NCBI GenBank assembly: GCA_963825815.1
Contig: CAWGVB010000002.1
Location: 147,564-211,563, forward strand
DNA: 64,000 nucleotides
Source: an uncultured Gemmatimonadales bacterium
Lineage (GTDB): Bacteria > Gemmatimonadota > Gemmatimonadetes > Gemmatimonadales > GWC2-71-9
Direction: 5' to 3'
A program made the position numbers and the translations under genes. Below the pieces are notes generated by a model that did no database searches, was not told the DNA's origin, and saw only the letters and a list, made by a program, of their open reading frames with translations. This document shows, one piece after another, positions 3,682-57,124 of this stretch (the first letter of the stretch is position 1; every line of letters begins with the position of its first letter).

Positions 3682-3721
3682 GCTTCCCTGCTTCCCCGCT
3701 TCCCTGCTTCCCCGCCTCCAC
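3682..3721. repeat. Tandem octamer array (GCTTCCCY)x4 plus one degenerate unit
   Basis: gcttccct gcttcccc gcttccct gcttcccc gcctccac, just downstream of the tRNA. Confidence 0.85.
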
Positions 3722-3799
3722 CCCCCGGCACGTCCATTGCTCTGACTGCCCTCTCAGGTCGTACTAGCCGCTGAAATCACGCTTTACGGAGTCAGGCCA

Positions 3800-4549
3800 A
3801 TGTCAGACAGACGGGTGAACGGGCATCTTGCGTCAACCGGCGTCCTGGTCCTGATCCTGGGGCTGCCCCTGTTTGGCTGCGCCGGCAAATCGGCTGAGAC
3901 CGCCCCGGCACCGGCCACCGCGTCCCGCCGTGCCGTCCGGGTTCAGACGGCGGTCAAGGCCGAACAGGACCGGCGGATCTCCCGGCTCGAGCTCGCCCTG
4001 CTGGAGAAAACGGCCCAAGTCGAGGAGCTGCAGGGTCAGCTGGACGAGGCGCGGGAAGAGGTAGTTCGCGCCATGGCCAAGCTTCAGACCTTGGCCAGTA
4101 GAGCGGAAGCTGCGTCAGGCATGGCGGAGGCCGAGGTCGCGCTGCAACCGTTGAAAGCCCGGTCGGCCCAGCAGACCGCGCCGGAAGCCACCCAGGCTGC
4201 CCGGCTCCTGCGAGAGGCCTCCACCGAGTTCAGTCAGGAGAACTACGGCGGGGCCTTGTATCTGGCGACCCAGGCCAAGGCCTTGGCTGCAGCCGGTACC
4301 GGGCGTCTGTCGGCTCGGGATCGTTCGGCCGACCGGCCGGGTGAGAAGCCATTCGCGGTTCCGGTCCCACTCAAGGCCATCGGCTCAGGAAATGTGCGGG
4401 AGGCACCGGGCACCACCGCGCCTGTGGCATTTGCAGTGGAAGGTGGGGACAGCCTGACCGGCTATTCCTATCTGGAGGACTGGGTGCGGATCAGCGATGA
4501 CATGGGGCGGGGGGGTTGGATCTTCCGGAAGCTGATCGTCCGCCGTTAG
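3800..4549 (+). CDS. Lipoprotein with coiled coil and C-terminal bacterial SH3-like domain
   Basis: Lipobox-like LFGC; heptad-rich middle; NVREAPG...WVRISDDMGRGGWI SH3b pattern. Confidence 0.7.
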   Translation: MSDRRVNGHLASTGVLVLILGLPLFGCAGKSAETAPAPATASRRAVRVQTAVKAEQDRRISRLELALLEKTAQVEELQGQLDEAREEVVRAMAKLQTLASRAEAASGMAEAEVALQPLKARSAQQTAPEATQAARLLREASTEFSQENYGGALYLATQAKALAAAGTGRLSARDRSADRPGEKPFAVPVPLKAIGSGNVREAPGTTAPVAFAVEGGDSLTGYSYLEDWVRISDDMGRGGWIFRKLIVRR

Positions 4550-6200
4550 CTAGGCCTTTCCCTTCACATTGGCCGGCTTCGTGCCGGCCCGCACGACCCG
4601 ATTCCGCCCGGCGCGCTTGGCGGCGTAGAGAGCCTCGTCCGCGTTCGCGATCACTTCCTCCGCCGTCTCCCCATGGTTGGGGAATTCAGCTATTCCGATG
4701 CTGAGAGTGATTTTGCGCCCGGCAAACTGGTTGGACTCGACCCGGGCTCTGATCCGCTCGGCCACCTCGTTCGCCACCTCCCCGGTGGTCCCGGTCAGCA
4801 GCACGGCAAATTCCTCCCCGCCGTAGCGCGCCGTACAATCCTCGGACCGGGTGGAGTTCAGCAGAATGCTCGCCACCTTCTTGAGGACTTCGTCTCCGGC
4901 CGGGTGGCCGAATGCATCGTTGTACTTCTTGAACTCGTCCACATCCGCCATCAGGATGCTGAATGCGCCCTTGTGGCGATAGGACCGTAGCAGCTCCTCG
5001 GAAAGGCGCTGGGTGAGATAACGGCGATTGTACAGGCCGGTGAGCGAATCCGAGGTTGAGAGCCGTTCCAGATCTTCGTTCTGCTTGCGGAGCCGGTCAT
5101 TCATCGTGTCGAGCTCTTGGCGACCCTGCCGCAGGCGGGCGACCATGTGGTTGAACACATCGGTCAACTCGCCGACTTCGCCGGTGGCGGCAGGCAGGTC
5201 CACCGCCAGGTCGCCCTCGGCCACCTCAACCGCGCCCTGGATCAGCCGCTCGAGCGGCAGAACGATCCGGATTCCCAGCCGGTACGCCATGAACCCGACC
5301 GCGAGCAGCAGCCCACACACCATGAGCAGGCTGACGTCGCGGAATCGCCGGATCTCCTGGAAGGCGGCATCGGCTGGAATCTCAGAGACGACGGCCCACT
5401 TGGCCCGGGGAATTCGCTTGAGGCTGCCCACCACCTCCGCGCCCGACAGGCCCTCGTAGCCGATCACCAGGCCCTCGCGTGACTTGAGCCGGTCCAGCGT
5501 GCGCGGCTTGAGACGGGACTTCATGAATTCGGCGGAGCTCTCGGCAGTCCCGACCAGCATGTCGCCGTTGATGGTGATCAGAAACGCCTGGCCGCCCCGG
5601 GGGGCGAAGGCCCGTAATCCTTTCTGTGCTCCGCGGAGGCTCAGCCGGGCCGCCAGTGCTCCGAGCATCTGGCCCTCTCCGCGCTCGACCGGCACCGCCA
5701 CCACCAGCACGCCTTTGGTCAGTGACTCGTCCCAGCTGGCCTGCCCCACTAGCGCGTTGTTGGTGCTCAGCTCCTTGGCCCAGTCGGCCGGAAGCCGGAT
5801 GCCCTTACCCTGGGGACTGGTAGCAGCAATCGGCCGACCCTGGGGGTCGAACGACCACGAGATCTTCGTACTCGTTGAATCGGTCCCGGACCGAGGTGAG
5901 ATAGTCGTTCAGGCGTTCCTGCGAGTTGCCGGGCCGGCGGCGGGCGAGTTTTTCCGAGACCTCGTAGGAGCTGGCGAACACCCGGAGGTCGTACAGGCGC
6001 TCCTTCAGCCACACGTCCATTTCTCGGGCAGCCTGGCCGCTGGAGCTGAGCAGCTCCTGCTTGATCTTTGCTTCCAGGGCGCGGCTGTTCTGGCTGTAGG
6101 AGATCCATGCGGTGAGCCCGGACGGGATGAGGGCTACGGTCAGCGCAAAGACCAGAATCTTGCTTCGGACCGTGTCCATTCTCAGCCGCAGCTTGGGCAA
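4550..6200 (-). CDS. Diguanylate cyclase (TM-dCache-like-TM-HAMP-GGDEF); +1 frameshift near 5852
   Basis: ORFs 5805..6200 and 4550..5749 join after one extra base (…DPQGRPIAATSPQG…); DSLTGLYNRR, RSED I-site, RYGGEEF. Confidence 0.9.
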
Positions 6201-6361
6201 GGCAGTTTCCTCGGTCAGGTTGGGTCACGCCGATAGGCTGAGGCCTCCAAGCAGGTCCCAGGCCAATCGTTATTGCTATGATGGGCAACGAGATAGGTGA
6301 AAGAACCGGGGCAGGAAAAGCGGTGCGCTGCCGCCGCTCTGGCAGATTCCCTCAGCGCGGT

Positions 6362-6727
6362 CTAGTCTCGGGCGAGCAGCTTTCGGACGGTGCCGGTCAG
6401 GGTGGCGATGCTGAAAGGCTTGTAGATGGTCGGAATGTCGGAGGGCAAGTGCCCCAACCGCTCCCGCCGGACCAGGTCATCGATGTGGAGGATCGGCAGC
6501 TCGGGAAAATCCTGCCGGACCCGCGCCACCAGCTCGGGTCCGGTGAGACCTGGCATGTAATTGTTGGTAACGATCAGGTCAAACCCGGTGTCGGCTCCGC
6601 GGGCCGCGTCCAGCGCAGCACGGCCATTGGCCACTGCAACGACTTCATACCCTTCATCCGTCAGAGCACGAACGATGAGAGCCCGAACCATCGGCTCGTC
6701 ATCGACGACGAGGATGCGCGCGGCCAT
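6362..6727 (-). CDS. Single-domain response regulator, atypical (phosphoacceptor Asp appears replaced by Asn)
   Basis: ILVVDDE, IVTNNYMPG in place of ..TD..MPG, YKPF. Confidence 0.8.
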   Translation of the reverse strand: MAARILVVDDEPMVRALIVRALTDEGYEVVAVANGRAALDAARGADTGFDLIVTNNYMPGLTGPELVARVRQDFPELPILHIDDLVRRERLGHLPSDIPTIYKPFSIATLTGTVRKLLARD

Positions 6728-7055: not shown

Positions 7056-7077
7056 GAGCTTATACCTGGGAGTAGCG

Positions 7078-14353: not shown

Positions 14354-14989
14354 ATGGCCACTCTGTATCCGCCCTATATCATCGAGCGTTCCAGTCGCGG
14401 CGAGCGCACCTACGACATCTTTTCCCGCCTGCTGATGGACCGGATCGTGTTTCTGGGCGCTCCCATCAATGACGACGTCTCGAACATCATCATCGCGCAG
14501 CTTCTGTTCCTCGAGGCCGACAACCCGGATAAGGACATCTACCTCTATATCAATTCGCCGGGTGGGGTGGTGTCGGCCGGCATGGCCATCTACGACACCA
14601 TGCAGCACCTGAGAGCGCCGGTGAACACCATCTGCATGGGAATGGCTGCTTCGATGGGGTCCTTCCTGCTGGCCGCCGGCGCCAAGGGCAAGCGCAGCGC
14701 GCTGCCCCATTCCCGGATCATGATCCACCAGCCCTCGGGCGGGGCCCAGGGCACAGCGGCCGACATCGAGATCCAGGCTCGCGAGATCCTCTATCTCCGC
14801 TCCAAGATGAACTCGCTCTACGCGCTCCATACCGGGCAGCCGATCGAGACCATCGAGCGGGACATGGATCGCGACCGGTTCATGAGCGCCGAAGAAGCCA
14901 AGGCGTATGGCTTGATCGACAGCGTGTTCACGCCGCACAAGGACCTGGTGCCACACGCGAACGGCAAGGACGGCAAGGAGAAGACTTGA
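14354..14989 (+). CDS. clpP: ATP-dependent Clp protease proteolytic subunit
   Basis: [26 protein letters not shown]. Confidence 0.98.
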
Positions 14990-15051
14990 CGGTCGGGAGA
15001 CCCGGGGGCAGTTTACCCGGCACCCAATCCACCTCCATCACGAAGCGCTCC

Positions 15052-16295
<1,244 letters not shown>

Positions 16296-16299
<4 letters not shown>

Positions 16300-17015
16300 G
16301 ACCAGCGGGGCAGCGGGGCAGCGGGGCGGCGGAGGCAGAGAAGGACGAGCGGTCAGGCGGTCAGGCGGTCGGCAAGGGCGCACAGGGTGCGCCCTTCTCA
16401 CGTGCGGGTAGTGCACCCAATCCGCTGGCGTCGCAGCCGGTCGAGTTCATCGGTTCTTTTCCGGACGCCGGCGTGCGGCTGGAGCCCTCGCTTCCCGAGA
16501 TCGCCTTCATCGGGCGGTCGAACGTAGGCAAATCGAGCCTGATCAATGCCCTGTTGGGCCGACCCGGGATGGCCCGGGTCAGCGGCTCTCCCGGCAAGAC
16601 CACACTGCTCAATTTTTACCGGCTGCCATCGCTGTATCTGGTGGATCTGCCGGGCTATGGCTTTGCCCGGGCCAGCAAGACCGATCGGGCCGGCTATCGC
16701 AAGCTCATCCACAGCTATCTCCGGACCAGGCAGACCCTGAGCGGGATCGTGTGGCTGCTCGACATTCGACACGACCCATCGAAGGAAGATCGGGAGATGC
16801 AGGAGTTGTTGATCGAGAGCCGCCGACCGGTGCTAGCGGTCCTGACCAAATCGGATAAGTTGAGCCGCTCCGCCGTTGCAGCCCGTCAGCGGGAGCTGGC
16901 AGAGATCCTGCAGCTCCGGCAGGACCAGGTCGAAATGACCAGCAGCCGTTCGGCAGCGGGAATAGCCGAGCTGGCCCAGAGTGTCTTGGCAGCCGCCCAA
17001 GGGGAAAACCCATGA
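16296..17015 (+). CDS. engB: Ribosome biogenesis GTPase YihA/EngB (start uncertain)
   Basis: [23 protein letters not shown]; in-frame GTG overlaps the clpX stop (GTGA). Confidence 0.9.
16303..16396. repeat. Octamer arrays (CAGCGGGG)x3 and (GCGGTCAG)x3 plus a hairpin
   Basis: 16303-16326 and 16349-16372; AAGGGCGCAC-agg-GTGCGCCCTT at 16374-16396. Confidence 0.8.
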
Positions 17016-27995: not shown

Positions 27996-29617
27996 GGACG
28001 AGCTATGACGCCTTCGCGGAACGCGCTCGCGAGGGCGGGATGGTTCCCGTCACCCATGAAGTCCTGCTGGATGGCGACACTCCGGTCACCGCGTTCGCCA
28101 AGCTTCACCAGGGGCAGTACGGGTTTCTGCTCGAATCGCTGGAGGGAGGCGAGCGCTGGGCCCGGTACACCTTCCTTGCCACCGATCCAACCGAAGTGTT
28201 TCGATATCAGGGACGGGAGTGCTCCCGATGGACCACGAGCACCGGATGGAAGCTGCAGGATGCCGATGTGGCTCCGCTGGACCACCTGGCCCAGACCATG
28301 CGCCGGCACCCCCCGGTCGAGGTGCCTGGTTTGCCCCGCTTCACCGGCGGGGCAGTAGGGTATATCGGGTACGACATCGTTCGTAGCATCGAGTCGCTGC
28401 CGGCCTCCCCGCCAGACGACCGCGGTCTGCCCGACGCCATCCTCATGGTGGTCGACACCCTGCTGGTGCTGGACAACCTGTTCAATCGCGCCACGGTGGT
28501 AGCGACCGTAGACGTTCCTCGGGGCACCTCTGCGGCGGAGCTTCGGCAGCTGTATGCGGGCGCGATCTCCCGAATCGACTCCTGGCTGGATCGGCTCAAG
28601 GCCGGTGGTCCCAATCCGGTTCTGCCGCTCGAGTCACCAGCGCTGCCCGCTACCGCTGGACCCTACCCCCAGCAGCAGTTCCAGAACGATGTCCGGCGGA
28701 TCAAGGATTACATCGCCGCGGGCGATACGTTTCAGACCGTGTTATCCCGCCGGGTAGATCTGCCGGCCCCAGACCCGTTTCTCACCTATCGCTATCTTCG
28801 CGCACTGAACCCCGCTCCCTACCTCTACTATCTCCACTGCGACGATGTCTATCTGATCGGAAGCTCGCCGGAGATCCTGGTCCGGGTGGAGGATGGGGAA
28901 GTAACTCTTCGGCCGATCGCGGGAACGCGGCCGCGCGGTTCATCGCCCGAGCAGGATGCCGCGCTCGCCGACGAGTTGCTGGCAGATCCCAAGGAACGCG
29001 CAGAGCATCTGATGCTGGTAGACCTCGGCCGGAACGACGTGGGGCGGGTGGCGGAGTTCGGAACGGTGCGACTGACGGCGTTCATGGCGATCGAGCGGTA
29101 CTCTCACGTGATGCATCTGGTCAGTGAGGTCCGAGGACGTCTTCGTCCGGAGCTCGACGCTATTGCGGCGCTGGCGGCCTGCTTTCCGGCCGGCACCGTC
29201 TCCGGCGCACCCAAGGTCCGGGCGATGGAGATCATCGACGAGCTGGAGCCGGTCCGGCGGGGCCCCTACGCCGGCGCCGTGGGCTACGTGAGCTGGGGGG
29301 CCCGAACCCTGGATACCGCGATCGCAATCCGAACCTGCGTCATCAAGGGGAAGACCGCCTGGATTCAGGCCGGCGCCGGGATCGTTGCCGATTCCGACCC
29401 CACCGCCGAATGGCTGGAGACCGAGGCAAAGGCCCGGGCGGTGCTGCTGGCGGTGGCGCTTGGCGGCGCGGCGGGGAAGCGGGGAGGCGGGGCAGGCGGG
29501 AAGCGAAGCAACAGCCCGGTTAGTGACGGCTCCCCGCTTCCCCGCTTCCCCGCTGCCCCGCATCTTTCCGACCATGCCCTACCGTCTCGTCAGCTTCTCC
29601 GGAGAACAGAGCTTTGA
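27992..29617 (+). CDS. trpE: Anthranilate synthase component I (C-terminal tail is repeat-derived)
   Basis: FLLES, LNPAPY, GSSPE, RPIAGTRPRG, EHLMLVDLGRND, PAGTVSGAPKVRAM, AGAGIVADS. Confidence 0.92.
   Translation: MRTSYDAFAERAREGGMVPVTHEVLLDGDTPVTAFAKLHQGQYGFLLESLEGGERWARYTFLATDPTEVFRYQGRECSRWTTSTGWKLQDADVAPLDHLAQTMRRHPPVEVPGLPRFTGGAVGYIGYDIVRSIESLPASPPDDRGLPDAILMVVDTLLVLDNLFNRATVVATVDVPRGTSAAELRQLYAGAISRIDSWLDRLKAGGPNPVLPLESPALPATAGPYPQQQFQNDVRRIKDYIAAGDTFQTVLSRRVDLPAPDPFLTYRYLRALNPAPYLYYLHCDDVYLIGSSPEILVRVEDGEVTLRPIAGTRPRGSSPEQDAALADELLADPKERAEHLMLVDLGRNDVGRVAEFGTVRLTAFMAIERYSHVMHLVSEVRGRLRPELDAIAALAACFPAGTVSGAPKVRAMEIIDELEPVRRGPYAGAVGYVSWGARTLDTAIAIRTCVIKGKTAWIQAGAGIVADSDPTAEWLETEAKARAVLLAVALGGAAGKRGGGAGGKRSNSPVSDGSPLPRFPAAPHLSDHALPSRQLLRRTEL
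29471..29562. repeat. Inverted pair of octamer arrays (GCGGGGAA)n ... (TCCCCGCT)n
   Basis: 29471-29504 is complementary to 29531-29562. Confidence 0.85.
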
Positions 29618-31284: not shown

Positions 31285-31308
31285 CTCGTGACTCGCGACT
31301 CCCGACTA
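31172..31308. repeat. Inverted pair of heptamer arrays (GAGTCGC)n ... (GACTCGY)n
   Basis: Five units at 31172-31206 are complementary to about six units at 31267-31308, at the junction of convergent genes. Confidence 0.88.
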
Positions 31309-31878
31309 CCTCCCAAACCGGTACTCTCGGCCGGCCTCCCGCATCAGGTTCAACACCAGCCGCACCGGCAGTCCCATCACGCTGAAGAAGTCTCCCTCGA
31401 TCCGTTCCACCAGCGCCGCGCCGTAGCCTTGGATCCCATACGCTCCGGCCTTGTCCATCGGCTCGCCGGTAGCCACATAGGCGCCGAGAAAATCGTCGTC
31501 CACCCGCCGGAAGGTCACGTTGGTGACATCGGTGGCCTGGTGCACCGCTTCATCGGCGACCAGGGCGACCGACGTCACCACCTGATGGGTGCGGCCCTGC
31601 AGCTGCTGCAACATCCGGAGAGCTTCCGCCCGGTCTGAGGGCTTCTCCAGCACCGCATCCCGGACCACCACGGTGGTATCGGCGCCGAGCACCAGCTCAC
31701 CCGGAACGCTGAGCGCCTTCTCCCGGGCCAGACGCTCCACATAGTCCACCGGGGTCTCGAATTCCCGGCGCACTTCCGGAATGTTCGGAGGAACCACCCG
31801 GACCGGGATGCCGAGCATTTCCAGCAGCTGGCGGCGGCGGGGAGAAGAGCTGGCCAGGGTCAACTCGGCAACTGTCAT
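31306..31878 (-). CDS. maf: Maf/YhdE nucleoside triphosphate pyrophosphatase
   Basis: LASSSPRRRQLL, GADTTV, DKAGAYGIQG. Confidence 0.95.
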   Translation of the reverse strand: MTVAELTLASSSPRRRQLLEMLGIPVRVVPPNIPEVRREFETPVDYVERLAREKALSVPGELVLGADTTVVVRDAVLEKPSDRAEALRMLQQLQGRTHQVVTSVALVADEAVHQATDVTNVTFRRVDDDFLGAYVATGEPMDKAGAYGIQGYGAALVERIEGDFFSVMGLPVRLVLNLMREAGREYRFGR

Positions 31879-37283: not shown

Positions 37284-38675
37284 TCAGTCCAGGAGTTCTC
37301 GGCCTGCCGCCACAAGGGCTTCGGCCTCGGCTCTGCTCGGTGCTTCAGCGATCAGCCGCACGATCGGCTCGGTACCCGAAGGTCGGACGTGCAGCCAACG
37401 GTCGGACCAGGCCAACCGAAGCCCATCGCGCTCGTCGGCGGCTGCATCGGAAAATCGCTGTCGCAGCCGCTGATAGAGAGGAGGCAGATCCGAACCGCGG
37501 GGTGCCTTTGCCTTGACGATGGTGTACCGGGGCGACTCGGCCACGAGTCGGGACAGCGTTACCCCAGTCTGGGCAAGAAGATGCAAGATCAAGGCCACCC
37601 CTAAGGGTGCGTCCCGTCCGATGTGCAGCTGCGGCAGCATGACGCCGCCGTTGCCCTCGCCGCCGATGAGCGCACGCTCATCTCGAATGGTACGAGCCAC
37701 GTTCGCCTCGCCCACAGGGGCCCGAACCAACCGAGCGCCACCGGCCCGGGCGGCATCCTCCACCACCAGGCTGGTCGAGAGATTCACCACCACCGTGGGG
37801 GTGGTACCGTCAGTGCGGCGTCGATCCAACACGGCTTTGACCGCGAAGGCCAGCGTATAGTCCTCCCCGATTGCAGTGCCGGTCTCATCTACCAGGGCAA
37901 GCCGGTCCACGTCGGGGTCGACTGCCAGCCCTATATCTGCCCGGGTGGTTTTGACCAGCGCGCTCAGCTCACCCAGGTTCTCAGGTACGGGCTCCGGCGC
38001 GCGAGGAAACCGACCATCCATCTCCAGATTGATCCCATGGACCCGGCAGGAAAGCCGCTCCAGCAGTGGGAGGATAGCCCCGGCGCCGGCACCACGCACG
38101 CAGTCGAGCGCGACCAGGAAGCGCCGCGCCCGGATGGCCGCCAGATCCAGCATCGGTAAGGCGAGGATGGCATCCAAGTGCCGCTCGATGGCCCCGGGAT
38201 CCTCTCGGGCGCTGCCGAGGTCACTCCAACCCGCTCGCCGCGGCCCCTGCTCTGCCAAGGCGCGGACTGCGCCGCCGGCCTGGGCATCCAGGAAGATCCC
38301 ATCCGGGCCCACGAACTTCAACGCATTCCACTCTATTGGATTATGGCTGGCGGTGAGGATCAAGCCAGCCGCCGCGTGATGATGCTCCACCGCCAGCTGT
38401 ACAGTTGGAGTGGGCACAATTCCCAGGTCGATCACCTCCACCCCCACCGACATGAGCCCGGCTGCAGCCGCACGAGTAAACATGGCTCCGCTGGTGCGGG
38501 CGTCCCGGCCGAGGACTACCGACGGGCGGACTGGCGGACGGGCGGACTGATCAGTGGATTGTGAGCCAGCCCAGGAACCCAGCGCAGCCGCGTAGCGGGC
38601 GACCAGCTCAGGTGTCAGGTCGGTGCCCACGTGTCCCCGGATGCCGGAGACGCTGATCATCAGAGTGTCGGACAT
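37284..38675 (-). CDS. glmM: Phosphoglucosamine mutase / phosphohexomutase
   Basis: ISVSGIRG, TASHNP, DPDVDR, GGEGNGG, VRPSGTEP; directly upstream of glmS. Confidence 0.88.
   Translation of the reverse strand: MSDTLMISVSGIRGHVGTDLTPELVARYAAALGSWAGSQSTDQSARPPVRPSVVLGRDARTSGAMFTRAAAAGLMSVGVEVIDLGIVPTPTVQLAVEHHHAAAGLILTASHNPIEWNALKFVGPDGIFLDAQAGGAVRALAEQGPRRAGWSDLGSAREDPGAIERHLDAILALPMLDLAAIRARRFLVALDCVRGAGAGAILPLLERLSCRVHGINLEMDGRFPRAPEPVPENLGELSALVKTTRADIGLAVDPDVDRLALVDETGTAIGEDYTLAFAVKAVLDRRRTDGTTPTVVVNLSTSLVVEDAARAGGARLVRAPVGEANVARTIRDERALIGGEGNGGVMLPQLHIGRDAPLGVALILHLLAQTGVTLSRLVAESPRYTIVKAKAPRGSDLPPLYQRLRQRFSDAAADERDGLRLAWSDRWLHVRPSGTEPIVRLIAEAPSRAEAEALVAAGRELLD
38525..38548. repeat. (GGCGGACK)x3 octamer array inside glmM
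   Basis: ggcggact ggcggacg ggcggact = 24 bp, frame-preserving. Confidence 0.7.
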
Positions 38676-46979: not shown

Positions 46980-47572
46980 TTTGCTGTTCCTCCCCATCGT
47001 GGCGCGACCTCCAGATCGAGCCCGACCTGATCGATGATGCGCTGCACCACGAAATCTACCAGCTGGCTGACCTCGGTGGGCCGATGATAGAAACCGGGCG
47101 AGGCCGGCAGAACCACCGCGCCCGCCTCGGCCACCGTCACCATGTTCCGGAGATGTATCACCGAGAGAGGAGCTTCCCGAGTGACCAGCACCAGCTTGCG
47201 CCGCTCCTTGAGGGTCACGTCCGCGGCCCGCTCGACCAGCGAGCGGCTGGTCCCCGCGGCCACAGCGGCCAACGTGCCCATGGAACAGGGGCAGATGACC
47301 ATGCCGGCGGTCCGGCGCGAGCCGGATGCCGGGAGCGCTCCGCGATCGCCGTCGGGATAGTTCACCACGGAGGACCAGTCACCTCCGGTCGCCTGACGCA
47401 GCGCATCCAGTGACCCAATCCCGCATTCTTCCTGGAGCAGCCGCATGCCATGTTCAGAGGTGATGAGCCAGACGGGAATTCGGTTCCGAGCCAGAATCTC
47501 GAGCAGGCGCACGCCATAGGGAGCGCCCGAGGCGCCAGTCAGCGCCAGCACCAGCGGAAGTGGCGTGGTCAC
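46976..47572 (-). CDS. ubiX: Flavin prenyltransferase UbiX
   Basis: TGASGA, ASGS, PCSMGT, RAADVTLKERR, PGFYHRP. Confidence 0.95.
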   Translation of the reverse strand: MTTPLPLVLALTGASGAPYGVRLLEILARNRIPVWLITSEHGMRLLQEECGIGSLDALRQATGGDWSSVVNYPDGDRGALPASGSRRTAGMVICPCSMGTLAAVAAGTSRSLVERAADVTLKERRKLVLVTREAPLSVIHLRNMVTVAEAGAVVLPASPGFYHRPTEVSQLVDFVVQRIIDQVGLDLEVAPRWGGTAK

Positions 47573-48498
47573 GTGATCCGGTCGATGAGAGCAAACCCGA
47601 ACACCACCAGTGACATCACACCGTTCATGGTGAAGAACGCCGCATTCAGCCGGGAAAGATCTCCCGGCCGCACCAGATGATGTTCGTAGGCCAGAATCCC
47701 CGTCGCCACGATCAATCCGGCAAAGTACCAGGGCCCAAACCCCGCCCCGTAGCCAAACAGCGCCAAGGCAGGAATGGTGATCCCGTGGAGCAGTTTTGCC
47801 AGCAGAATTGCCCGCGAATTACCCAGGCGCACTACGGCGCTTCTGAGTCCCTCTCCGGCATCGAAGGCAGCGTCGGGCAGAGCGTAGAAGATGTCAAAGC
47901 CCGCCACCCAGGTGGACACCGCGAGAGTAACGGCAAGGAGGAGCCATATCGGGTGACTCCACCGCCCGGTGACCGCGAGGTATCCGCCCACCGGCGCGAT
48001 CGCCAGGCTCGCGCCGAGCCAGAGGTGAGGCCACCAGGTGAACCGCTTGGACATGCTGTAGAGCAGAATCCAGGCTAGAGCCAGGGGACTCAGCCACAAG
48101 CAGAGCGGGTTGAGCAGCCCGGCAGCGAGGAAGAAGAGCAGCGACGCCGCAATCACCGAGCCCCACGCCTGCGCCAGCGAGAGAGTTCCCCTGGGCAGCT
48201 CGCGGTTGGCGGTCCTTGGGTTCCGGGCGTCGAAGCCGCGGTCGGCTATCCGGTTGAAGCCCATCGCTGCCCAGCGGGCGGCGGAGAAAGCCAGCACCAC
48301 CAGAACAACGGTTCGCCCGGTGACCGGAGCTACCCGCGACGCCGCGAGCACGCCGAGCAGCGCAAAGGGAAGGGCAAAGACCGTGTGAGGAAGCTTGACG
48401 AAGTTGACATACCGGGTGAGCAGCGACTCGCCGCGGAAGGTTTGCGCTTCGCGGGCGGGCGGAGAGGCGGTCAGCCGGTCTGGCGGTCCGATACTCAC
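47569..48498 (-). CDS. ubiA: UbiA-like polyprenyltransferase (MqnP-type)
   Basis: VKLPHTVFALPFA, FNRIADRGFDARNPRT.NRELP, GFDIFYA; probable own GTG start at 48498. Confidence 0.9.
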   Translation of the reverse strand: MSIGPPDRLTASPPAREAQTFRGESLLTRYVNFVKLPHTVFALPFALLGVLAASRVAPVTGRTVVLVVLAFSAARWAAMGFNRIADRGFDARNPRTANRELPRGTLSLAQAWGSVIAASLLFFLAAGLLNPLCLWLSPLALAWILLYSMSKRFTWWPHLWLGASLAIAPVGGYLAVTGRWSHPIWLLLAVTLAVSTWVAGFDIFYALPDAAFDAGEGLRSAVVRLGNSRAILLAKLLHGITIPALALFGYGAGFGPWYFAGLIVATGILAYEHHLVRPGDLSRLNAAFFTMNGVMSLVVFGFALIDRIT

Positions 48499-48553
48499 CG
48501 GCGACCCCCATGGGCCTTGCTGTCCGCCTGTCCGCCAGTCCGCCCCGTCCGCC
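48458..48553. repeat. Inverted octamer arrays (GGCGGTCN)n ... (NGTCCGCC)n at the ubiD/ubiA junction
   Basis: Four units at 48458-48489 and four at 48521-48553. Confidence 0.8.
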
Positions 48554-50027
48554 AGCTTTATCCCCAGCTTCTCCCACATCTCATCTACCCGCCGCTGGGT
48601 TTCAGGATCCATGGTGATCAGCTGGGGCCACTCGCGCTCGAAGCCCTCTTCCTTCCACTTGCGGGTGGCGTCGATGCCCATCTTGCTGCCGTAGGTGAAG
48701 GCTCGGCTGGAATGGTCGAGCACGTCGATGGGTCCCATGGTGAACCGAACATCCCGTTCCGGATCGATGTTGTTGAGCGCGATCCACCAGGCCTCATCGG
48801 GATTCTGCACGTTCACCTCCTTGTCCACGATCACCAGGACCTTGGCCAGCGACATGAGGCCCTGCCCCCACAGCGCATTCATCACCTTGTAGGCCTGACC
48901 GGGATATTGCTTGTCGATCGAGACGAACACCAGGTTGTGAAAGATCCCGGCTGCGGGCATGTGGTAATCCACAATCTCCGGAATCGTGAGCTTGAGCAGG
49001 GGCAGGAAGATTCGCTCGGTGGCATGGCCCAGGTAATAATCCTCCATCGGAGGACGGCCCACCAACGTTGCCGGATAGATCGGATCTCGCCGTGAGGTGA
49101 CCGCCGTGACGTGCACCTGAGGGTAGTAATCGGCCAGCGAGTAGAATCCGGTGTGGTCGCCGAAGGGCCCCTCGAGCACCAGGGGCTCGGCCGGATCGAT
49201 ATACCCTTCGAGCACCAGCTCCGCTTCGGCCGGTACGGCCAGATCCGAGGTCAGCGCCCGCGCCAGCTCGACCGGCTGGCGACGGATGAAACCCGCAAAC
49301 AGAAACTCGTCGATGGTGGGCGGAAGCGGCGCGGAACCGGAGTAGATGCTGGCCGGGTCGCCACCCAGAGCAATGACCACCGGCATCCGCTCCCCCCTCG
49401 CCGCCATCTCTCGCCAGTGCGCCGCGCCCACCTTGTGGCGCTGCCAGTGCATGGCCAGAGTGTTCCGTCCCAGTACCTGCACCCGGTACATGCCGACATT
49501 GCGAACGCCCCGCGCCGGGTCGGTCGTGATCACCATCGGAAGGGTGATGTACCGTCCGCCGTCACCCGGCCAGGTGGTGAGGAACGGAATGCTGCTCAGA
49601 TCGACGTCCTGATCTCGCTGGACCACCTCCTGACAGGGCGGACGACCGCCCTTCTGCCGGGGCGGGAACTTGCCGATCTCCGCCAGCCTGGGCAGCATCG
49701 CCAGCTTGCCGAACAGTCCCTCGGGCACCTTGAGGTTCAACATTTCCGAAATGCGCTCGCCGATCTCGTTGAGGTCGGTGACCCCGAGCGCCAGGTTCAT
49801 CCGGCGGAGCGAGCCGAACAGGTTGATGGCGACCGGCTGCGCGCTGCGCCGGCCGTCGTCGAGCAGGACATGCTCGAAGAGGAGAGCCTGGCCTCCCCCG
49901 GGCTCTTCATCACCCGGTCGGCGATCTCGGCGATCTCCAGGCGGGCTCGCACCGGATGGCTGATTCGGGCCAGCTCACCGATCCCGTCGATGGCCTTGAT
50001 GAACTCCCGGAGGTTGTCTAGTGCCAT
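48495..50027 (-). CDS. ubiD: UbiD-family menaquinone biosynthesis decarboxylase (MqnL-type); indels near 49895 and 48545
   Basis: MALDNLREF, RNVGMYR, MHWQRHK, EGPFGDHTGFY, GRPPMED, KMGIDATRK. Confidence 0.92.
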
Positions 50028-52123: not shown

Positions 52124-53391
52124 GCGCTTTCTCGGGATCCTCGCGCTACTCAGCGTCGCCGGGGGTCACCAGCTCCGCGCTGAAATACCGGTGGATGGGA
52201 TCACCAGTCGCGCGGCCGACCTGGTCGATCACATGCGCGGTCTGATCACCGGGTTCACCAGGCCCGAACGGCGTGCGCCAGGCTCAGGCGCGGGTTCACC
52301 CTCAGGAGATCGCCACCGGTGGAACCACGGTGGATCTCAGCCATCTCAGTCAGCCAACACTGATCGAGGATCGGCTCAGTTCCGCACTGCATCCGTCCAG
52401 CGGTGAGCTCAGGATCACCATTCCCGGCGGGGCAGCCCGTCGGGGGGACTTCAGCCTGGGCTCAACCGAAACTCGAAGCGGCCACCTTCTGGTGTTGGAT
52501 GGAAACGCCGATATCTACGGTCATCTGAACGGAAATCTGGTAACGGTCAGAGGAGATGTCGTAGTTCACCCAGGCGGCGTGGTGGGTGGTGATGTGCTGA
52601 CGCTGGGAGGACGAGTTCGAGACGAGGGCGGCGAAATCGGCGGTGAGGTCCGGACCCTCAGGTCCACTACCCTCCTCTCCCCGGCCGCACGGCCCGAGCC
52701 CGCGCCGCTGAGCGCCTGGCAGAGTGTTCTGCGCCGAACCGCCGGCGTGCTCGGTGTCTTCCTGTCGCTGACGCTGCTGGGGTTTGGACTGGTCCTGTTC
52801 GGGCGACAGAATCTGGAAATCGTGTCCGACACGGTATCGCATTCCTTCGGTCGCGCCTTCGTTACCGGTCTTTTGGGCCAGATCCTGCTGCTCCCTACCT
52901 TCGGCATGCTCGTCGTTGGGCTGATTCTCAGCGTGGCCGGCATTCTCCTGCTGCCCTTTGCGGTCGCCGTTTTTGCCCTGCTGGTGGTGATAGGAGTGGT
53001 TGGCGGGTACCTGGCTGTCGCCCATGCCATGGGGGAGACCTACACCCGGCGGCGGATGGCTCTGGGTACCCTCGTTGGTTCTCCCAACAGCTACCGGTAT
53101 CTGCTGGTTGGACTGGTAGCCCTGAGCAGTCTGTGGGTAGCCTGGGCACTATTCGGCTGGGTGCCGGTAGCGGGAACAATCGTGTGGGGCGCAGCCTTCT
53201 TCGCCAGCTGGCTCCTGGGCACCGCTGGATTCGGGGCGGCACTGCTCAGCCGGGCCGGCATCAAGGAGAATTTCGCCGGGCGACTGCTGCCGCCAGAAGC
53301 CCTGACCGACGAGTACCTGTGGGCTACGCCGCAATTCGGGGTGCCGGCGGGCCGAAAGCCGGGAACCCGGACGCCTTCGCGTGGGCTGTAG
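52110..53391 (+). CDS. Membrane protein with bactofilin-like beta-helix + multi-TM domain; +1 frameshift near 52265
   Basis: GNADIYGHLNGNLVTVRGDVVV.PGGVVGGDV repeats followed by several TM helices. Confidence 0.7.
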
Positions 53392-53392
53392 G

Positions 53393-54238
53393 ATGCGGCG
53401 GAGCACAGCGGCGCTGCCCATGATGCTGCTCTGGGCCGGCCTGGTTCAGGCTCAGACCATGCGCCCGTTCGAGACCTTCCGGCAGAGCCATGGGGATACC
53501 CGGCTGGGCGCGCGGGTGGAGTACGCTGCGGGCAACCTGCGACTGGTGCCCGGCCAGGCGGACGAGCTCTACCGAATGGAGCTCTCCTACGACGAGGACC
53601 GCTACGTTCCGGTCAGCGACTTCAACAACCAGACCGGGGCCGTGTTGCTGGGCCTCAAGCCGGCAGGCGAGGGTGGCATGCGGGTGGTTTCCCGCAGTCA
53701 GCTGAGCCAGCAGGCCACCGTGGCGCTCTCTCCCGCCGTCGACCTCAATCTGGACCTGACCCTGGGAGCGGTGAATGCCGATGTGGAGCTCGGAGGTCTC
53801 CGGATCAACAATCTTCATGTGAAAGCCGGAGCCAGCAGGACCATACTGCGTTTTTCCCAGCCCAACGCTGTGCGATGCGAGCTGGCAGCGATCAGTGCAG
53901 GTGCCGCCGAGGTGTCCGTTTTGGGACTGGGCAACAGCCGGTGCGATGAAGTTGAGTTCGAAGGCGGGATGGGACGGGTCCTGCTCGATTTCGCCGGCCA
54001 ATGGACCTCGAGCTCCCGGGTCGAGGTCAAGATGGCCATGGGAGAGCTCACCCTGCGGCTTCCCAGGCGGATCGGGCTTCAGATTACGATGGACAAGTTT
54101 CTCTCGAGCTTTGAGCCGGCCGGGTTGACCCGGCGGGGCGATACTTTTCAATCGGCCAACTACCAGAGCAGCACGCGGCATCTCGATCTGGATCTCACCA
54201 CGGCCATGGGTGGGGTGAATGTGGAGTGGGTGGACTAG
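53393..54238 (+). CDS. Exported toast-rack/LiaF-like beta-solenoid protein
   Basis: Signal peptide; repeated GA/GM turns (LGAVNADV, AGAS, GGMG, MAMGE, TAMGGV). Confidence 0.7.
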   Translation: MRRSTAALPMMLLWAGLVQAQTMRPFETFRQSHGDTRLGARVEYAAGNLRLVPGQADELYRMELSYDEDRYVPVSDFNNQTGAVLLGLKPAGEGGMRVVSRSQLSQQATVALSPAVDLNLDLTLGAVNADVELGGLRINNLHVKAGASRTILRFSQPNAVRCELAAISAGAAEVSVLGLGNSRCDEVEFEGGMGRVLLDFAGQWTSSSRVEVKMAMGELTLRLPRRIGLQITMDKFLSSFEPAGLTRRGDTFQSANYQSSTRHLDLDLTTAMGGVNVEWVD

Positions 54239-54247
54239 ATTGGATCC

Positions 54248-54868
54248 ATGTCGCCGCTGGAAACCCTCGGCTTTGCGCTCGGCACCTCGTTCGCTTCGGG
54301 GCTGAACCTTTACGCCACGGTAGCCGCCGCGGGGTTGTTCCAGCGATTCGGAATCATCCAGCTCCCCGATAGCCTGCAGGTACTCGCGAGTCCCTTCGTC
54401 CTGGGGATCGCGATTCTGCTGTTCGTCATTGAATTCATCGCAGACAAGATCCCCTACGTCGACAGCGCGTGGGACGCCGTCCACACCTTCATCCGTCCCC
54501 CGGCAGCGGCCCTCATCTCCTACAGCGCCTTCGGCCACGTGCCCGAGGAATGGAAGATTACGGCGGCGCTGCTGGCGGGCGGAGTGGCGCTCACCTCTCA
54601 CGGCGCCAAGGCCACGACCCGCGCCGCCGCCAACACCAGCCCGGAACCGATCAGCAACTGGACGCTCAGCACTCTGGAGGATGGACTCGCGGTGTTCCTG
54701 GCGTGGATGGCTGCGGCGCACCCGATCCTGACGGCCGCGGTCGTAGTGGTGCTGGTGATTCTCGCCGTGTTGTTGATCTGGAAGCTGGTGGGCTACGTAC
54801 GCGTGCTGCGCGACCGGGTACGAGGATGGAAGACGAGACCGGCCGGTCCGCCTGGAGGCGCCACGTAG
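54248..54868 (+). CDS. DUF4126 membrane protein
   Basis: SGLNLYA, EFIADKIPYVDSAWD.VHTFIRP, NTSPEP.SN. Confidence 0.9.
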   Translation: MSPLETLGFALGTSFASGLNLYATVAAAGLFQRFGIIQLPDSLQVLASPFVLGIAILLFVIEFIADKIPYVDSAWDAVHTFIRPPAAALISYSAFGHVPEEWKITAALLAGGVALTSHGAKATTRAAANTSPEPISNWTLSTLEDGLAVFLAWMAAAHPILTAAVVVVLVILAVLLIWKLVGYVRVLRDRVRGWKTRPAGPPGGAT

Positions 54869-54875
54869 GACCGTC

Positions 54876-55631
54876 TCAGTCCAGTCTGGCCCGGACTCTC
54901 TCTCCCATTCCGACACCGAGCCGCCGCGCCGCCGAGCCATCACGCACGGCGATCTCCACCGCCCCTCCCGATCCGATGTACGCCAGCAGGCTCCCGGTTG
55001 CCACGTCGTTGTAGGTCTGCTGCAGACGACCGATCTCCAGCTCGTCGATCTCGACCTTCGCGTGAGACGGCACCAGGTCGGCGGTGAGGTTGGTTATCAG
55101 ACTGCCAAACCGATCGACGTACACCACCTCCCCGACCACTGCTCCGTTCTCTCGATGCGGCGGAGTGTACGCCAGCCGGTGAGGCATGCCGGCGAACCGC
55201 TGCCCCAGTGAAGTGAGGGGGGCGCCGGTCGCCAAGGCAGCCGCCGCCGGAGCGAAGAGGTCGCGGCCGTGAAAGGTTCTCGACGACCCTTCCCGGGCCT
55301 GGAGTTCGACAGCCTCGACCTCCGCGTCGTGCAGCACCGGGGTGAACACCCCGTTGTCGGGGCCGACGAACCGGTGTCCGTGTGCGCTCAGGGCCAGGGC
55401 GGCGCGCGAGCTGCCCACTCCGGGATCTACCACGACGAGGTGGATCGTGCCCGCGGGAAAGCGGTGCCAGGTGCGTCCCAGGACGTATGCGGCGGATCGG
55501 ATATCTCCGGGAGCGATCTCGTGCGTTACATCGACCAGCGTGGCGCCGGGAGCACCACTGACGAGGACGCCCTTCACTTCGGCGACGTAGGAGTCGGCCG
55601 TGCCGAAGTCGGTGAGGAGGGTGATGATCAT
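54876..55631 (-). CDS. SAM hydroxide adenosyltransferase (DUF62, chlorinase/fluorinase family)
   Basis: TLLTDFG, VVDPGVG, GPDNG, TFHGRD, VDRFG. Confidence 0.92.
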   Translation of the reverse strand: MIITLLTDFGTADSYVAEVKGVLVSGAPGATLVDVTHEIAPGDIRSAAYVLGRTWHRFPAGTIHLVVVDPGVGSSRAALALSAHGHRFVGPDNGVFTPVLHDAEVEAVELQAREGSSRTFHGRDLFAPAAAALATGAPLTSLGQRFAGMPHRLAYTPPHRENGAVVGEVVYVDRFGSLITNLTADLVPSHAKVEIDELEIGRLQQTYNDVATGSLLAYIGSGGAVEIAVRDGSAARRLGVGMGERVRARLD

Positions 55632-55667
55632 AAAGCGGATAGAGCGGCAGAAGCGGGAAGTTCGGTT

Positions 55668-56777
55668 CTATCCCCGCAAGATCGGTAACGCCATGCTCCG
55701 GCCCGCGGTCTTCCGCTGCAGCTGCTCGGCGATATCCCGGAGGCTCTGAGCGGCGGGGCTCTCAGGCTGGGCAATCAGGATGGGCTGGCCTTCGTCCGCC
55801 AGAACGGCCAGCTGCGGCTGCAGTGGAACGCTGCCCAGCAGGGGCGCCGAAATCTCTTCGGCCAGGCGCTGCCCCCCACCCGAGGAGAAGAGCTCGAATC
55901 TGCGGCCGGTCTCGGGATCGGTGAACCCGCTCATATTCTCGACCACGCCAATGACTGGAACGCCCACGCGCTCGAACATTTTCGCTCCCCGAAGCGCGTC
56001 ACCCACCGCGACTTCCTGAGGCGTAGTGACGATCAGCGCGCCGGCCACGTGGGTGGCCTGAACCAGGGAGAGCTGGGCATCGCCGGTGCCGGGAGGGAGA
56101 TCGACAATGAAATAGTCCAGCTGGCCCCACTCCACGTCCTGGAGAAACTGATTGACGATTTTCATGATGATCGGACCGCGCCAGATGGCCGGAGCATCCC
56201 GCTCCACCAGGAAGCCCAGGGACATGAGCTTCACGCCATAGGCGTCCAGCGGCTGGATTTTACCTCCCAGCACGGGCGGGCGATCGAACACTCCAAACAT
56301 TCGCGGAATGTTCGGCCCGTAGACGTCCGCGTCCATCAGTCCGACCTGAAAACCTGCCTGGGTCAGAGCGATGGCAAGGTTGGCCGCGACAGTGGACTTG
56401 CCGACTCCACCCTTGCCGGAGGAGATCGCGATGATCTTTCCCAGATTGGGCTGCTCGGCCGGCTTGGGGGCAGGTGCGGTTGGGGCTCCAGCTCCGCTCG
56501 GTGGTCCATGAGTGGCCTGGGCGGGCCCGGCCGGATTGGTCACGTTGATCTTGATCTCGTCCTTCCGCACGCCCTCGACCGCGGCAACCGCGGTCCGAGC
56601 GGCCCGCACCAGGGAGGCAGGATCGTCGGGAGCCAGGAGGAAAGTGAACGATACCCGACCCTCGTCGGTCACCGTGAGGTCGCGAATCATCCCGGCCGAG
56701 AGCAGGTCGTTCTCCAAGCGGGGATTCTGAATCCGGGCAAGTGCCGCCGTGACTCGGGCCTCGAGCGAATCGCTCAC
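55668..56777 (-). CDS. mrp: Mrp/NBP35 (ApbC) family ATPase
   Basis: SGKGGVGKST, DADVYGP, WRGP, DLPPGTGD, VTTPQ, ENMS. Confidence 0.93.
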   Translation of the reverse strand: MSDSLEARVTAALARIQNPRLENDLLSAGMIRDLTVTDEGRVSFTFLLAPDDPASLVRAARTAVAAVEGVRKDEIKINVTNPAGPAQATHGPPSGAGAPTAPAPKPAEQPNLGKIIAISSGKGGVGKSTVAANLAIALTQAGFQVGLMDADVYGPNIPRMFGVFDRPPVLGGKIQPLDAYGVKLMSLGFLVERDAPAIWRGPIIMKIVNQFLQDVEWGQLDYFIVDLPPGTGDAQLSLVQATHVAGALIVTTPQEVAVGDALRGAKMFERVGVPVIGVVENMSGFTDPETGRRFELFSSGGGQRLAEEISAPLLGSVPLQPQLAVLADEGQPILIAQPESPAAQSLRDIAEQLQRKTAGRSMALPILRG

Positions 56778-56780
56778 GGA

Positions 56781-57011
56781 CTACACCGCCTCCACGTGCT
56801 TGACTTCCGGCACCATCTCCCGGAGTCGGGCCTCGATGCCTTGCTTCAGGGTAACCGTGGAGGCGGAGCAACCGTGACAGGTTCCCCCGAGACGCAGCAG
56901 CAGGATCCCGTCCTGCTCGTCGAAGTCCACGACCTCAACCCGCCCCCGGTGCGACGCGATATAGGGCCGAAGGGTGTCGAGGGTCTGCTCGATGCGATCG
57001 ATGGTGTCCAT
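56781..57011 (-). CDS. NifU/Nfu C-terminal domain protein
   Basis: LRPYIASHRG, GTCHGC, TLKQGIE. Confidence 0.92.
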   Translation of the reverse strand: MDTIDRIEQTLDTLRPYIASHRGRVEVVDFDEQDGILLLRLGGTCHGCSASTVTLKQGIEARLREMVPEVKHVEAV

Positions 57012-57025
57012 GGTGGAAATATAGT

Positions 57026-57124
57026 GGGAGTCGCCAGTCGTCAGTCCTCAGTCGTCAGATTGCCCTGAATAAGCCTCGGGACCACTGGCGACTAGGGACT
57101 GGGGACTGGCGACTGGCGACTCCC
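57026..57124. repeat. Inverted heptamer arrays (CAGTCGY)n ... (CTGGCGA)n
   Basis: GGGAGTCGCCAGTCG (57026-57040) is perfectly complementary to 57110-57124; four to six units per arm. Confidence 0.88.

Follow-up and report, generated by a model that had tools for sequence, protein, structure and literature searches.

Oriented pairs of short tandem-repeat arrays at gene boundaries in a Gemmatimonadales genome and its relatives

The window considered here is a 64,000-nucleotide stretch of DNA from an uncultured Gemmatimonadales bacterium (contig CAWGVB010000002.1, positions 147,564 to 211,563), and the subject is a set of short tandem arrays, built from 7- or 8-nt units, found at seven of its loci. 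The genome that carries the window (G000) is a metagenome-assembled genome (MAG) of 3.85 Mb in 46 contigs, with 65% G+C, 78% completeness and 2.8% contamination. The seven loci belong to a genome- and order-wide class of arrays with 7-9-nt units that sit in short spacers at gene boundaries. Tandem Repeats Finder (TRF) detected arrays at each of the loci named in the original prediction, and one further arm was recognized by inspection. The features are as follows.

3577-3658: tRNA-Leu gene, preceding the first array.
3677-3719: single pyrimidine-rich array of about five GCTTCCCY units (TRF), 19 nt after tRNA-Leu and 80 nt before an open reading frame (ORF) at 3800-4549.
16303-16370: two direct G-rich arrays (TRF), CAGCGGGG in 4.4 copies (16303-16338), then GCGGTCAG in 2.8 copies (16349-16370).
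16376-16394, plus strand: small terminator-like hairpin directly beyond these arrays, GGGCGCAC-AGG-GTGCGCCC followed by TTCTC.
29462-29505: 5' purine-rich arm at the trpE/FHA-cyclase junction, unit GCGGGGAA, translated within the tail of the TrpE ORF.
29506-29530: unique loop of the same element, with out-of-frame TAG and TGA triplets inside.
29531-29561: 3' pyrimidine-rich arm of the same element, unit TCCCCGCT (TRF).
31172-31209: 5' arm of the convergent cyclase/maf element, unit GAGTCGC, inside the tail of the cyclase ORF (29725-31284).
31266-31307: 3' arm of the same element, CGACTCG/TGACTCG, abutting the maf stop codon.
31306-31878, minus strand: maf ORF.
38521-38547: single 27-nt array, GACGGGCG/GACTGGCG, inside domain I of a minus-strand phosphoglucomutase (PGM)/GlmM-like gene.
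47569-49800, minus strand: ORF of 743 aa in which UbiD (residues 52-378) and UbiA (476-726) are joined via an array pair.
48452-48490: G-rich arm at the ubiD/ubiA junction (GGCGGTCA type, plus strand), below the TRF score and seen in the sequence.
48520-48555: C-rich arm at the same junction (TGTCCGCC on the plus strand; TRF), which on the gene strand is the G-rich UbiD tail.
57026-57058 (from 57029 by TRF): 5' arm, AGTCGCC/AGTCGTC, between the end of an nrnA-like gene and the start of the next minus-strand gene at about 57011.
57084-57121: 3' arm, ACTGGCG/ACTGGGG, overlapping the last codons of the minus-strand DHH/DHHA1 (nrnA-like) ORF at 57092-58147.

At four of these loci a complementary arm lies 23-56 nt away. 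When RNA folds were compared with those of shuffled sequences, the trpE element gave -78.8 kcal/mol (z -6.1), the cyclase/maf element -80.3 kcal/mol (z -7.2) and the nrnA-junction element -61.5 kcal/mol (z -6.9). The ubiD/ubiA arms carry one systematic mismatch per unit and give a weak hairpin (z -2.1), and the single arms do not fold, among them the array at 3677-3719, which has no partner (z +0.6).

Most of the gene names first assigned to these sites stand (trpE, the cyclase, ubiD, ubiA and an nrnA-like gene), whereas two do not. No engB was found near the first array, which instead follows tRNA-Leu, the sole match of a covariance-model search of the whole window against Rfam; and the array at 38521, placed earlier at a gene end and attributed to ubiD, is internal to the PGM/GlmM-like gene. 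The gene upstream of the arrays at 16303 is clpX (ORF 14986-16299), and the arrays begin 4 nt past its stop codon.

The idea that the arrays overlap coding ends and make new protein tails was borne out. The TrpE ORF runs through both arms of its junction element, whose 3' arm ends 12 nt upstream of the ATG (29574) of the FHA-domain ORF, and the cyclase ORF enters the next element and terminates within its 3' arm. At 48452-48490 the arm codes on the gene (minus) strand for an N-terminal extension of UbiA. In relatives, ubiD and ubiA are two genes, adjacent in all of them, with an ATGA/GTGA stop-start overlap; here they are fused, since beyond the 8-mer array the stop of the GTGAGT junction no longer falls in frame. 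This fusion may be real, or may be an assembly error or a collapsed repeat. The UbiD and UbiA proteins are probably a futalosine-type menaquinone pair. Inside the PGM/GlmM-like protein the array codes for an in-frame loop insert in domain I, and the variable segment has lengths of 36, 51, 27, 30, 27 and 15 nt across six species, all divisible by 3. Arrays of this kind bear on annotation, as they extend, frameshift or fuse ORFs (the TrpE and cyclase tails, UbiD-UbiA, the PGM insert), and they are likely places for assembly errors in MAGs. As a separate observation, the FHA domain (from the ATG at 29574 to a stop at 30185) and the GAF-adenylate/guanylate cyclase part (the ORF at 29725-31284) are encoded in different reading frames, with an overlap of about 460 nt, which may reflect either a frameshift in the MAG or a single gene divided in two. 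Of 30 loci compared, that of G000 included, 28 conserve the N-terminal FHA sequence.

The arrays of the window are a sample of a much larger set. With cut-offs of at least 3 copies and a score of at least 40, TRF returned 110 arrays of period 7 and 185 of period 8 from the whole genome (295 in total), against 0-1 of each in two third-order Markov shuffles, so that their frequency far exceeds the shuffled background and the arrays are not a product of chance. After overlaps were merged, 376 arrays remained at 296 loci, or about 6 per 64 kb, and these figures come from a 78%-complete MAG with redundant contigs. The proposal of a dispersed family with unit types recurring at unlinked loci is likewise upheld: there are 87 canonical unit types, the two commonest of which account for 93 arrays (AAGCGGGG 48 and AGCGGGGC 45), followed by ACTCGCG (21), ACGGGCGG (20) and ACTGGCG (18). 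Octamers make up 234 of the 376 arrays. Copy number peaks sharply at 4.0-4.5 units in all unit classes, and the median array is 31 nt long.

A preference for four units invites an explanation by G-quadruplex (G4) or i-motif regulatory repeats, which has been proposed for the heptamers of Xanthomonas and Nostoc. The commonest units GCGGGGAA, GCGGGGCA and GGCGGGGA do supply four G-tracts at the modal four copies, and the published heptamers form G4 in vitro, according to the portion of Rehm et al. drawn on here (PMC4692102). However, only 96 of the 376 arrays (26%) contain the pattern G3+N1-7 four times over on either strand, heptamers free of GGG show an equally clear peak at 4.0-4.5 copies (42 of 118), and units of relatives such as GTGAAAG, GGATGAA, TGAGCTA and CACAGAGA are incapable of forming G4. 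Because the G4-capable arrays are a minority and the four-unit peak does not need GGG, the idea developed for Xanthomonas does not explain this family, and an explanation of this kind is considered very unlikely.

The second general property is inverted pairing. When an array was scored as paired if at least 2 complementary units lay no more than 120 nt away, 202 of the 376 arrays had a complementary arm, as opposed to 53-77 in a control that used the complement of a random other array's unit; the remaining 174 are unpaired. The paired hairpins have arms of about 30 nt around a unique loop. Together with the three window pairs out of four that fold far better than shuffles, these numbers bear out the earlier claim that inverted pairs form long hairpins.

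The arms are also strictly oriented. Among arrays with a partner on one side only, the orientation of a unit family relative to the centre of the element is fixed in 193 cases as opposed to 4, and the consistency holds family by family (AAGCGGGG 30 of 30, AGCGGGGC 17 of 18, AGTCGCC 14 of 14, AGTCGCG 13 of 13). Octamers serving as the 5' arm are G-rich in 50 instances and C-rich in 1. The more purine-rich arm is the 5' one in 55 of the 57 pairs of G000 with both arms called by TRF, and in 31 of 33 pairs at the loci compared from other genomes, three of the 33 being from the unpublished genome G102. Since this arrangement reads identically on both strands, the polarity belongs to the element and does not follow from gene direction. 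Relative to gene orientation, single arms are only weakly biased (50 versus 35).

A further reading takes the arrays for oriented binding or recognition sites on DNA, which might be Chi-like signals facing a fragile hairpin centre or targets of a nucleoid or partition protein. The polarity is the one that properly oriented Chi sites would have for a break at the centre. AGCGG or GAAGCGG is contained in many units, presumably the Chi sequences of Bacillus and Staphylococcus, and the systematic mismatch in every unit at ubiD/ubiA fits recognition of the unit better than pairing. Yet a single genome holds 87 unit types and sister species carry unrelated units, so that one sequence-specific protein cannot read them all, and no candidate protein was identified. 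A role as oriented binding or recognition sites is thus rated as extremely unlikely.

The position of the arrays relative to genes was assessed with a crude custom caller based on ORFs and codon usage (2973 genes, 72% coding), so that all figures of gene context are approximate. Intergenic arrays number 260 where 104 are expected, and those deep inside ORFs 54 where 219 are expected, in agreement with the suggestion that the arrays are enriched at gene boundaries. They occupy 56 of 345 convergent spacers, 175 of 1715 tandem spacers and 31 of 345 divergent ones. Within tandem spacers, the purine-rich arm of a pair lies a median of 4 nt past the upstream stop, and the pyrimidine-rich arm lies a median of 49 nt ahead of the next start. 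At the three junctions studied most closely, the loop contains the host's own stop or start codons.

Comparison of orthologous junctions among relatives indicates how these elements change with time. At ubiD/ubiA, 11 loci of the genus contain both anchor genes: six have inverted pairs with differing units, two have single arms and three are empty. The pair units across relatives include GGCGGACA, GGCGGAAC, GACGGAAA, GTGAAAG and CACAGAGG; the loop contains the ATGA/GTGA stop-start overlap, which is also present in relatives without arrays, and the arms form the C-terminal tail of UbiD and the N-terminal tail of UbiA. A reading by eye of the trpE to FHA-cyclase junction found 13 clear pairs and one single arm among 28 loci, and the same kind of reading of the cyclase/maf junction found eight pairs and two single arms among 29 loci, three of the cyclase/maf sites being only 25-27 nt long, with no room for an element. 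The trpE-junction pair is present in 11 of 11 members of a well-supported clade that includes G000, with diverged units, in a single-gene tree whose members are not independent of each other. In most species with arrays at this junction, the trpE stop codon lies within the loop. At the nrnA junction, four of four relatives have pairs with other units.

The turnover is fast. With 92% identity at the trpE junction, G000 and G011 nevertheless have the units GCGGGGAA and GCGGGGCA, respectively, in both arms. At cyclase/maf the sister species G017 and G002 have unrelated units (GGCTATG versus GGACGGGAA). Both arms change together at orthologous junctions; because the arms co-vary, complementarity is maintained. 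Furthermore, unit families are common to many loci of one genome and differ between species at the same junction. Within the bin itself, contigs C11 and C2 have flanks that are about 90% identical, with arrays and loops that are entirely different. The bin also contains redundant contigs: parts of C2 match C11 and C33 at 80-96% identity, and parts of C13 and C23 match C21 and C1, respectively, at 100%. This redundancy points to a strain mixture or a duplicated assembly in the MAG.

The distribution of the arrays is narrow. Samples of 20-100 kb, small in relation to a genome, were taken from each of 15 other genomes. In 100-kb samples of G004 (same genus as G000), G019 and G021 (family f2) and G028 (family f3), inverted pairs of 7- or 8-mers were found in every case, each genome with units of its own, and 60-kb samples of G102 and G164 contained three pairs each. 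No pair was found in 480 kb from other families or classes (80 kb of G054, from family f10, 60 of G055, 80 of G058, 100 each of G103 and G106, and 60 of G149), and these six genomes yielded 0-2 weak TRF rows each. Ten public trpE loci of Gemmatimonadota (82 kb) gave one weak row. Among the sampled genomes, then, the arrays occur only in three families of one order.

A single unit family behaves in an all-or-none manner. Searched as three consecutive copies with at most 2 mismatches, GCGGGGMA was present in 28 of 301 sampled genomes of the phylum, with about zero matches for the reversed control. Within the genus it occurs in 8 of 18 members, with 40-170 hits each (147 in G000); four further genera of the family also include genomes that have it, and it is nearly absent elsewhere.

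One explanation for these patterns is that the arrays are a tolerated, functionless by-product of mutation, in which seeds prone to slippage expand where selection permits it, and whose position, length cap and polarity reflect only purifying selection against damage to coding sequence and translation signals. Turnover of sequence and length even between genomes 92% identical would suit such a by-product, as would empty sites in some relatives with no visible replacement, the many single arms (174 of 376) and variation within PGM that is in-frame only; the part of Rehm et al. drawn on here also reports no regulatory role for the Xanthomonas repeats (PMC4692102). Nevertheless, the pair is kept in all 11 clade members at trpE and in all four relatives at nrnA despite the change in sequence, the arms co-vary so that complementarity is maintained, and the length peak at about four units is sharp in all unit classes. 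In addition, the confinement of the arrays to one order, with 480 kb from six genomes of other families containing no pairs, calls for a lineage-specific cause. Neutrality is considered an unlikely account.

A second alternative, that the arrays are non-autonomous mobile DNA of the REPIN, miniature inverted-repeat transposable element (MITE) or foldback kind, in which a trans-acting enzyme recognizes oriented units and installs or moves arm pairs, and the unit families are invading lineages, has several attractions. Identical unit families occupy dozens of unlinked loci, the orientation toward the centre (193 versus 4) is as strict as that of terminal inverted repeats, and GCGGGGMA is present with 40-350 hits or not at all, the positives being 8 of the 18 members of the genus plus some further genera within the family. 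Moreover, G017 and G002 have unrelated units at one junction, while G002 and G008 share the GGACGGGAA unit at cyclase/maf at differing insertion points. The genome does contain one transposase gene of the Y1 type (IS200/IS605-type or RAYT-like, that is, resembling the transposases associated with repetitive extragenic palindromic (REP) sequences), a single-copy ORF of 160 aa at C2:269874-270212.

The sequences around the arrays speak against such an origin. With the arrays masked, 238 of the 296 loci share no sequence with any other locus, and the other 58 are mostly accounted for by redundant contigs or by an unrelated hairpin repeat (GTCAYCCTGAG...). The flanks contain no conserved motif on either side of the arrays (information content about zero), and no target-site duplication was seen. 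Because the loops are unique host sequence, holding the host's stop and start codons, the elements are not copied in the manner of transposons; the arrays are not copies of a transposon-like element. A MITE or foldback identity was also rejected, as there is neither shared internal sequence nor conserved ends. Nor do arrays flank the Y1 gene, the nearest lying about 2-3 kb away. A match to the family Y1_Tnp is absent from the array-bearing G019 and G021 and from all three sampled f3 genomes, and it is common in f10 (10 of 13 genomes), from which 80 kb of G054 contain no arrays; other enzymes were not systematically searched. Since the gene is neither flanked by arrays nor co-varies with them across genomes, a link to RAYT, which the original prediction had listed among the gene families that might accompany the arrays, was dropped, and with it the notion of a REP-like mobile system. 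The reading as non-autonomous mobile DNA is rated unlikely, about to the same degree as neutrality.

The reading favoured here, believed about as much as it is doubted, is that these are repeat hairpins driven by slippage and evolving in concert, which probably act as 3'-end or insulator stem-loops. The lineage amounts to a natural experiment in which many unit families, most of them incapable of forming G4, share one architecture with strict polarity, co-varying arms and fast turnover at junctions, and it can be argued from this that their shared principle lies in an oriented hairpin of repeats at gene boundaries and not in a G4 motif. Arrays would grow, shrink and become homogeneous via replication slippage or unequal exchange within an array, and exchange between the two arms, as well as among arrays of the same family, would produce concerted evolution. 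Complementarity of the arms would be kept via inter-arm exchange or by selection, and new sites may be seeded at short stretches of local homology.

What the hairpins would do is a further and less certain step. The paired form would fold into a stable stem-loop in transcripts from either of the two flanking genes, and this could serve as a terminator that is independent of a U-tract, as a protector of the 3' end, or as an insulator between closely packed transcription units, by analogy with REP sequences and bacterial interspersed mosaic elements (BIMEs). The polarity, on this reasoning, would place purine-rich, stop-free sequence coding for hydrophilic residues right after stop codons, and pyrimidine-rich sequence free of Shine-Dalgarno motifs before starts, in all four gene arrangements. 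As neither 7 nor 8 is divisible by 3, gain or loss of a unit reshuffles C-terminal tails and can fuse neighbouring genes.

No T-run follows the arms at the trpE, cyclase/maf and nrnA elements, so that they lack the U-tract of an intrinsic (Rho-independent) terminator, and canonical hairpin-plus-T terminators show no excess in 20 kb of the window (11, as opposed to 9.3 +/- 3.6 in shuffles). G000 has genes for Rho and for a MutS-type protein, and loss of such housekeeping genes was discarded as a cause of the arrays; an SbcD-like gene matched its family at 64.5 bits, under the cut-off of 77.65 bits.

Several observations weigh against slippage-driven terminator hairpins. The rates of convergent, tandem and divergent spacers with arrays stand at 16:10:9, far from the 2:1:0 of pure terminators, and the 174 unpaired arrays do not fold into hairpins. 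At clpX, the small hairpin at 16376-16394 is kept in four of four relatives compared while the adjacent arrays vary, being clear in G011, G046 and G051 and degenerate in G008; since a conserved terminator-like hairpin adjoins them, the arrays themselves are not the terminator there. The AGTC-type families, nearly balanced in purines, are still strictly polar (14 of 14, 13 of 13 and 11 of 11), and the argument from coding and Shine-Dalgarno sequences does not cover them. Variant units are not mirrored between the arms (score 15.7 versus 14.6 when permuted, p = 0.17). Exact recent copying from arm to arm, which predicts mirrored variants, was rejected on this ground, and the arms thus share a consensus unit without being recent copies of each other. 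Slippage alone also fits poorly with the differing insertion points of one unit in G002 and G008 and with the presence of GCGGGGMA in 8 of 18 genus members at full strength or not at all; the wholesale replacement of units between sister species and the all-or-none spread of a family are easier to obtain via a trans-acting or mobile process.

The boldest extension of the favoured reading, decidedly unlikely and a little more so than either neutrality or mobility, takes the gene-boundary hairpins to be U-tract-independent, bidirectional terminators or insulators made of self-renewing repeats, which obey a rule of purines in the 5' arm and are written by a lineage-specific factor. The period of 7-9 nt would match the length of the RNA:DNA hybrid in RNA polymerase. 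A pyrimidine-rich RNA arm would make a weak RNA:DNA hybrid, and the 3' arm could then be zipped out by the repeated 5' arm in any register. A property of the polymerase or of repair, or an enzyme, specific to the lineage, would write the arrays and make them homogeneous, which would explain the genome-wide sweeps of unit families and the wholesale replacement between sister species.

Cyanobacteria, Xanthomonas and Burkholderia have for years been known to contain short heptamer arrays. The closest known relatives of the present arrays are the convergent heptamer arrays of Xanthomonas and Nostoc, as described in the parts of Rehm et al. drawn on here (PMC4692102), and the comparisons below extend only to those parts. 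There are 186 GGGAATC arrays in Xanthomonas and 183 GGGGA(C/T)T arrays in Nostoc PCC 7120; about 90% of them are intergenic, and they are under-represented between divergent genes (PMC4692102). In Xanthomonas most arrays consist of four units; their distance to the upstream ORF is 28 nt, as opposed to 160 nt to the downstream one, and there are 70-75 convergent inverted pairs, in each case with one array per strand. Between close species length and sequence differ, but whether a site is single or paired is conserved, and paired repeats are few in Nostoc (PMC4692102).

Like those repeats, the present arrays number in the hundreds, have about four units, are intergenic and close to the end of the upstream ORF, form convergent pairs, are under-represented in divergent spacers and vary in length and sequence between close species; the earlier label of unknown origin was in this respect overstated, a like architecture having been published for Xanthomonas (PMC4692102). 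They differ in that Xanthomonas and Nostoc have about one unit type per genus, whereas G000 has 87 with a majority of octamers, and relatives add 9-mers; in their phylum; in a polarity that holds also for units without G-tracts; and, relative to Nostoc, in the frequency of inverted pairing (PMC4692102). The Xanthomonas-type unit GGGNATC was found in none of the 376 arrays, and the Nostoc-type unit GGGGA(C/T)T in four.

Other known repeats are more distant: the short tandemly repeated repetitive (STRR) sequences, the long simple sequence repeats (LSSRs), the TAACTGA repeats and REP/BIME elements. The STRR sequences of cyanobacteria are dispersed, mostly intergenic heptamers. The likeness to them that had been asserted is supported, and the four arrays just mentioned form the family with AGTCCCC as 5'-arm unit (canonical unit ACTGGGG; the complement GGGGACT matches the Nostoc unit); in contrast, the host here belongs to Gemmatimonadota and is not a cyanobacterium, and 234 of the 376 arrays are octamers of other sequence.

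REP units are conserved imperfect palindromes of 20-40 nt that are copied as units and linked to a RAYT gene which they flank. As REP/BIME elements they form hundreds of extragenic hairpin repeats at gene ends, in species-specific families, with proposed roles as terminators or stabilisers of mRNA. The present arrays resemble them in being hundreds of extragenic, hairpin-forming repeats at gene ends; unlike those of REPIN-RAYT systems, their arms are tandem arrays around unique loops, and the lone Y1_Tnp gene is unflanked and does not co-vary with them. Membership in the REP/REPIN-RAYT class was rejected, as no conserved palindromic unit of 20-40 nt is copied between loci and the Y1 gene has no flanking arrays. 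Eukaryotic foldback transposons have inverted arms of short tandem repeats around a variable centre and move as whole units; the arms here are similarly built, but there is no sign of copying as a whole.

The LSSR survey of Mrazek et al. 2007, in the summary given in PMC4679880, found an excess of repeats with 5-11-nt units, heptamers foremost, in scattered non-pathogen lineages, and proposed slippage; that summary covers neither inverted pairing, nor polarity, nor Gemmatimonadota. The TAACTGA direct heptamers of marine Beggiatoaceae, cyanobacteria and Bacteroidetes, to go by the sections of MacGregor 2015 used here, are intergenic, in 2-6 copies and patchy in distribution (PMC4679880). They are like the present arrays in being abundant intergenic heptamers with a patchy phylogenetic spread, and unlike them in being direct repeats of a single AT-rich unit just upstream of starts, with 1 inverted case among 170 sets (PMC4679880). 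In the limited literature searched, no description of such arrays in Gemmatimonadota was found. New here are the phylum, the many unit families including octamers, the independence of polarity and four-unit length from G-tracts, and the concerted turnover at junctions.

Some minor observations complete the description. The closest matches to the TrpE of the window come from Gemmatimonadota MAGs (79% in the case of a "Gemmatimonadales bacterium"), and the public runs that contain the stretch are soil and rhizosphere metagenomes, RNA runs containing at most 0.06 of its words. A weak additional 8-mer array, CCGAGCCG in 2.9 copies, lies at 54916-54938, at the boundary of the minus-strand ORFs 53324-54943 and 54876-55631.

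About 7-9 nt upstream of the ATG of both the FHA-cyclase gene (29562-29573) and the small gene after nrnA (57012-57025) lies a (C/T)ATATTYC box that is conserved in relatives and may be the -10 box of a leaderless transcript. The hexamer TATATT was considered as a marker of transcription-unit starts and rejected: there are 36 copies genome-wide, and its occurrence near elements (4 of 129) is similar to that elsewhere (28 of 1444, p = 0.33). Because it is so rare, the hexamer is not a general promoter signal.

Two other repeats deserve mention. The first is a hairpin repeat unrelated to the arrays (GTCAYCCTGAGCG...CTCAGGRTGAC); its motif is matched about 60 times in G000, and it is present at the trpE junction of the relatives G032, G001 and G039 (L130, L131 and L132), sometimes inside the loop of an array pair. 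The second consists of inverted octamer pairs, CACAGAGA/CGCAGAGA followed by TCTCTGTG/TCTCTGCG, with loops of 117-380 nt and the same purine-first polarity, which occur in a Wenzhouxiangellaceae MAG (L030, 2888-3050), in a betaproteobacterial MAG (L078, 1600-2025) and also at L098 in G019. Such pairs in distant phyla may represent a separate, more widespread family.

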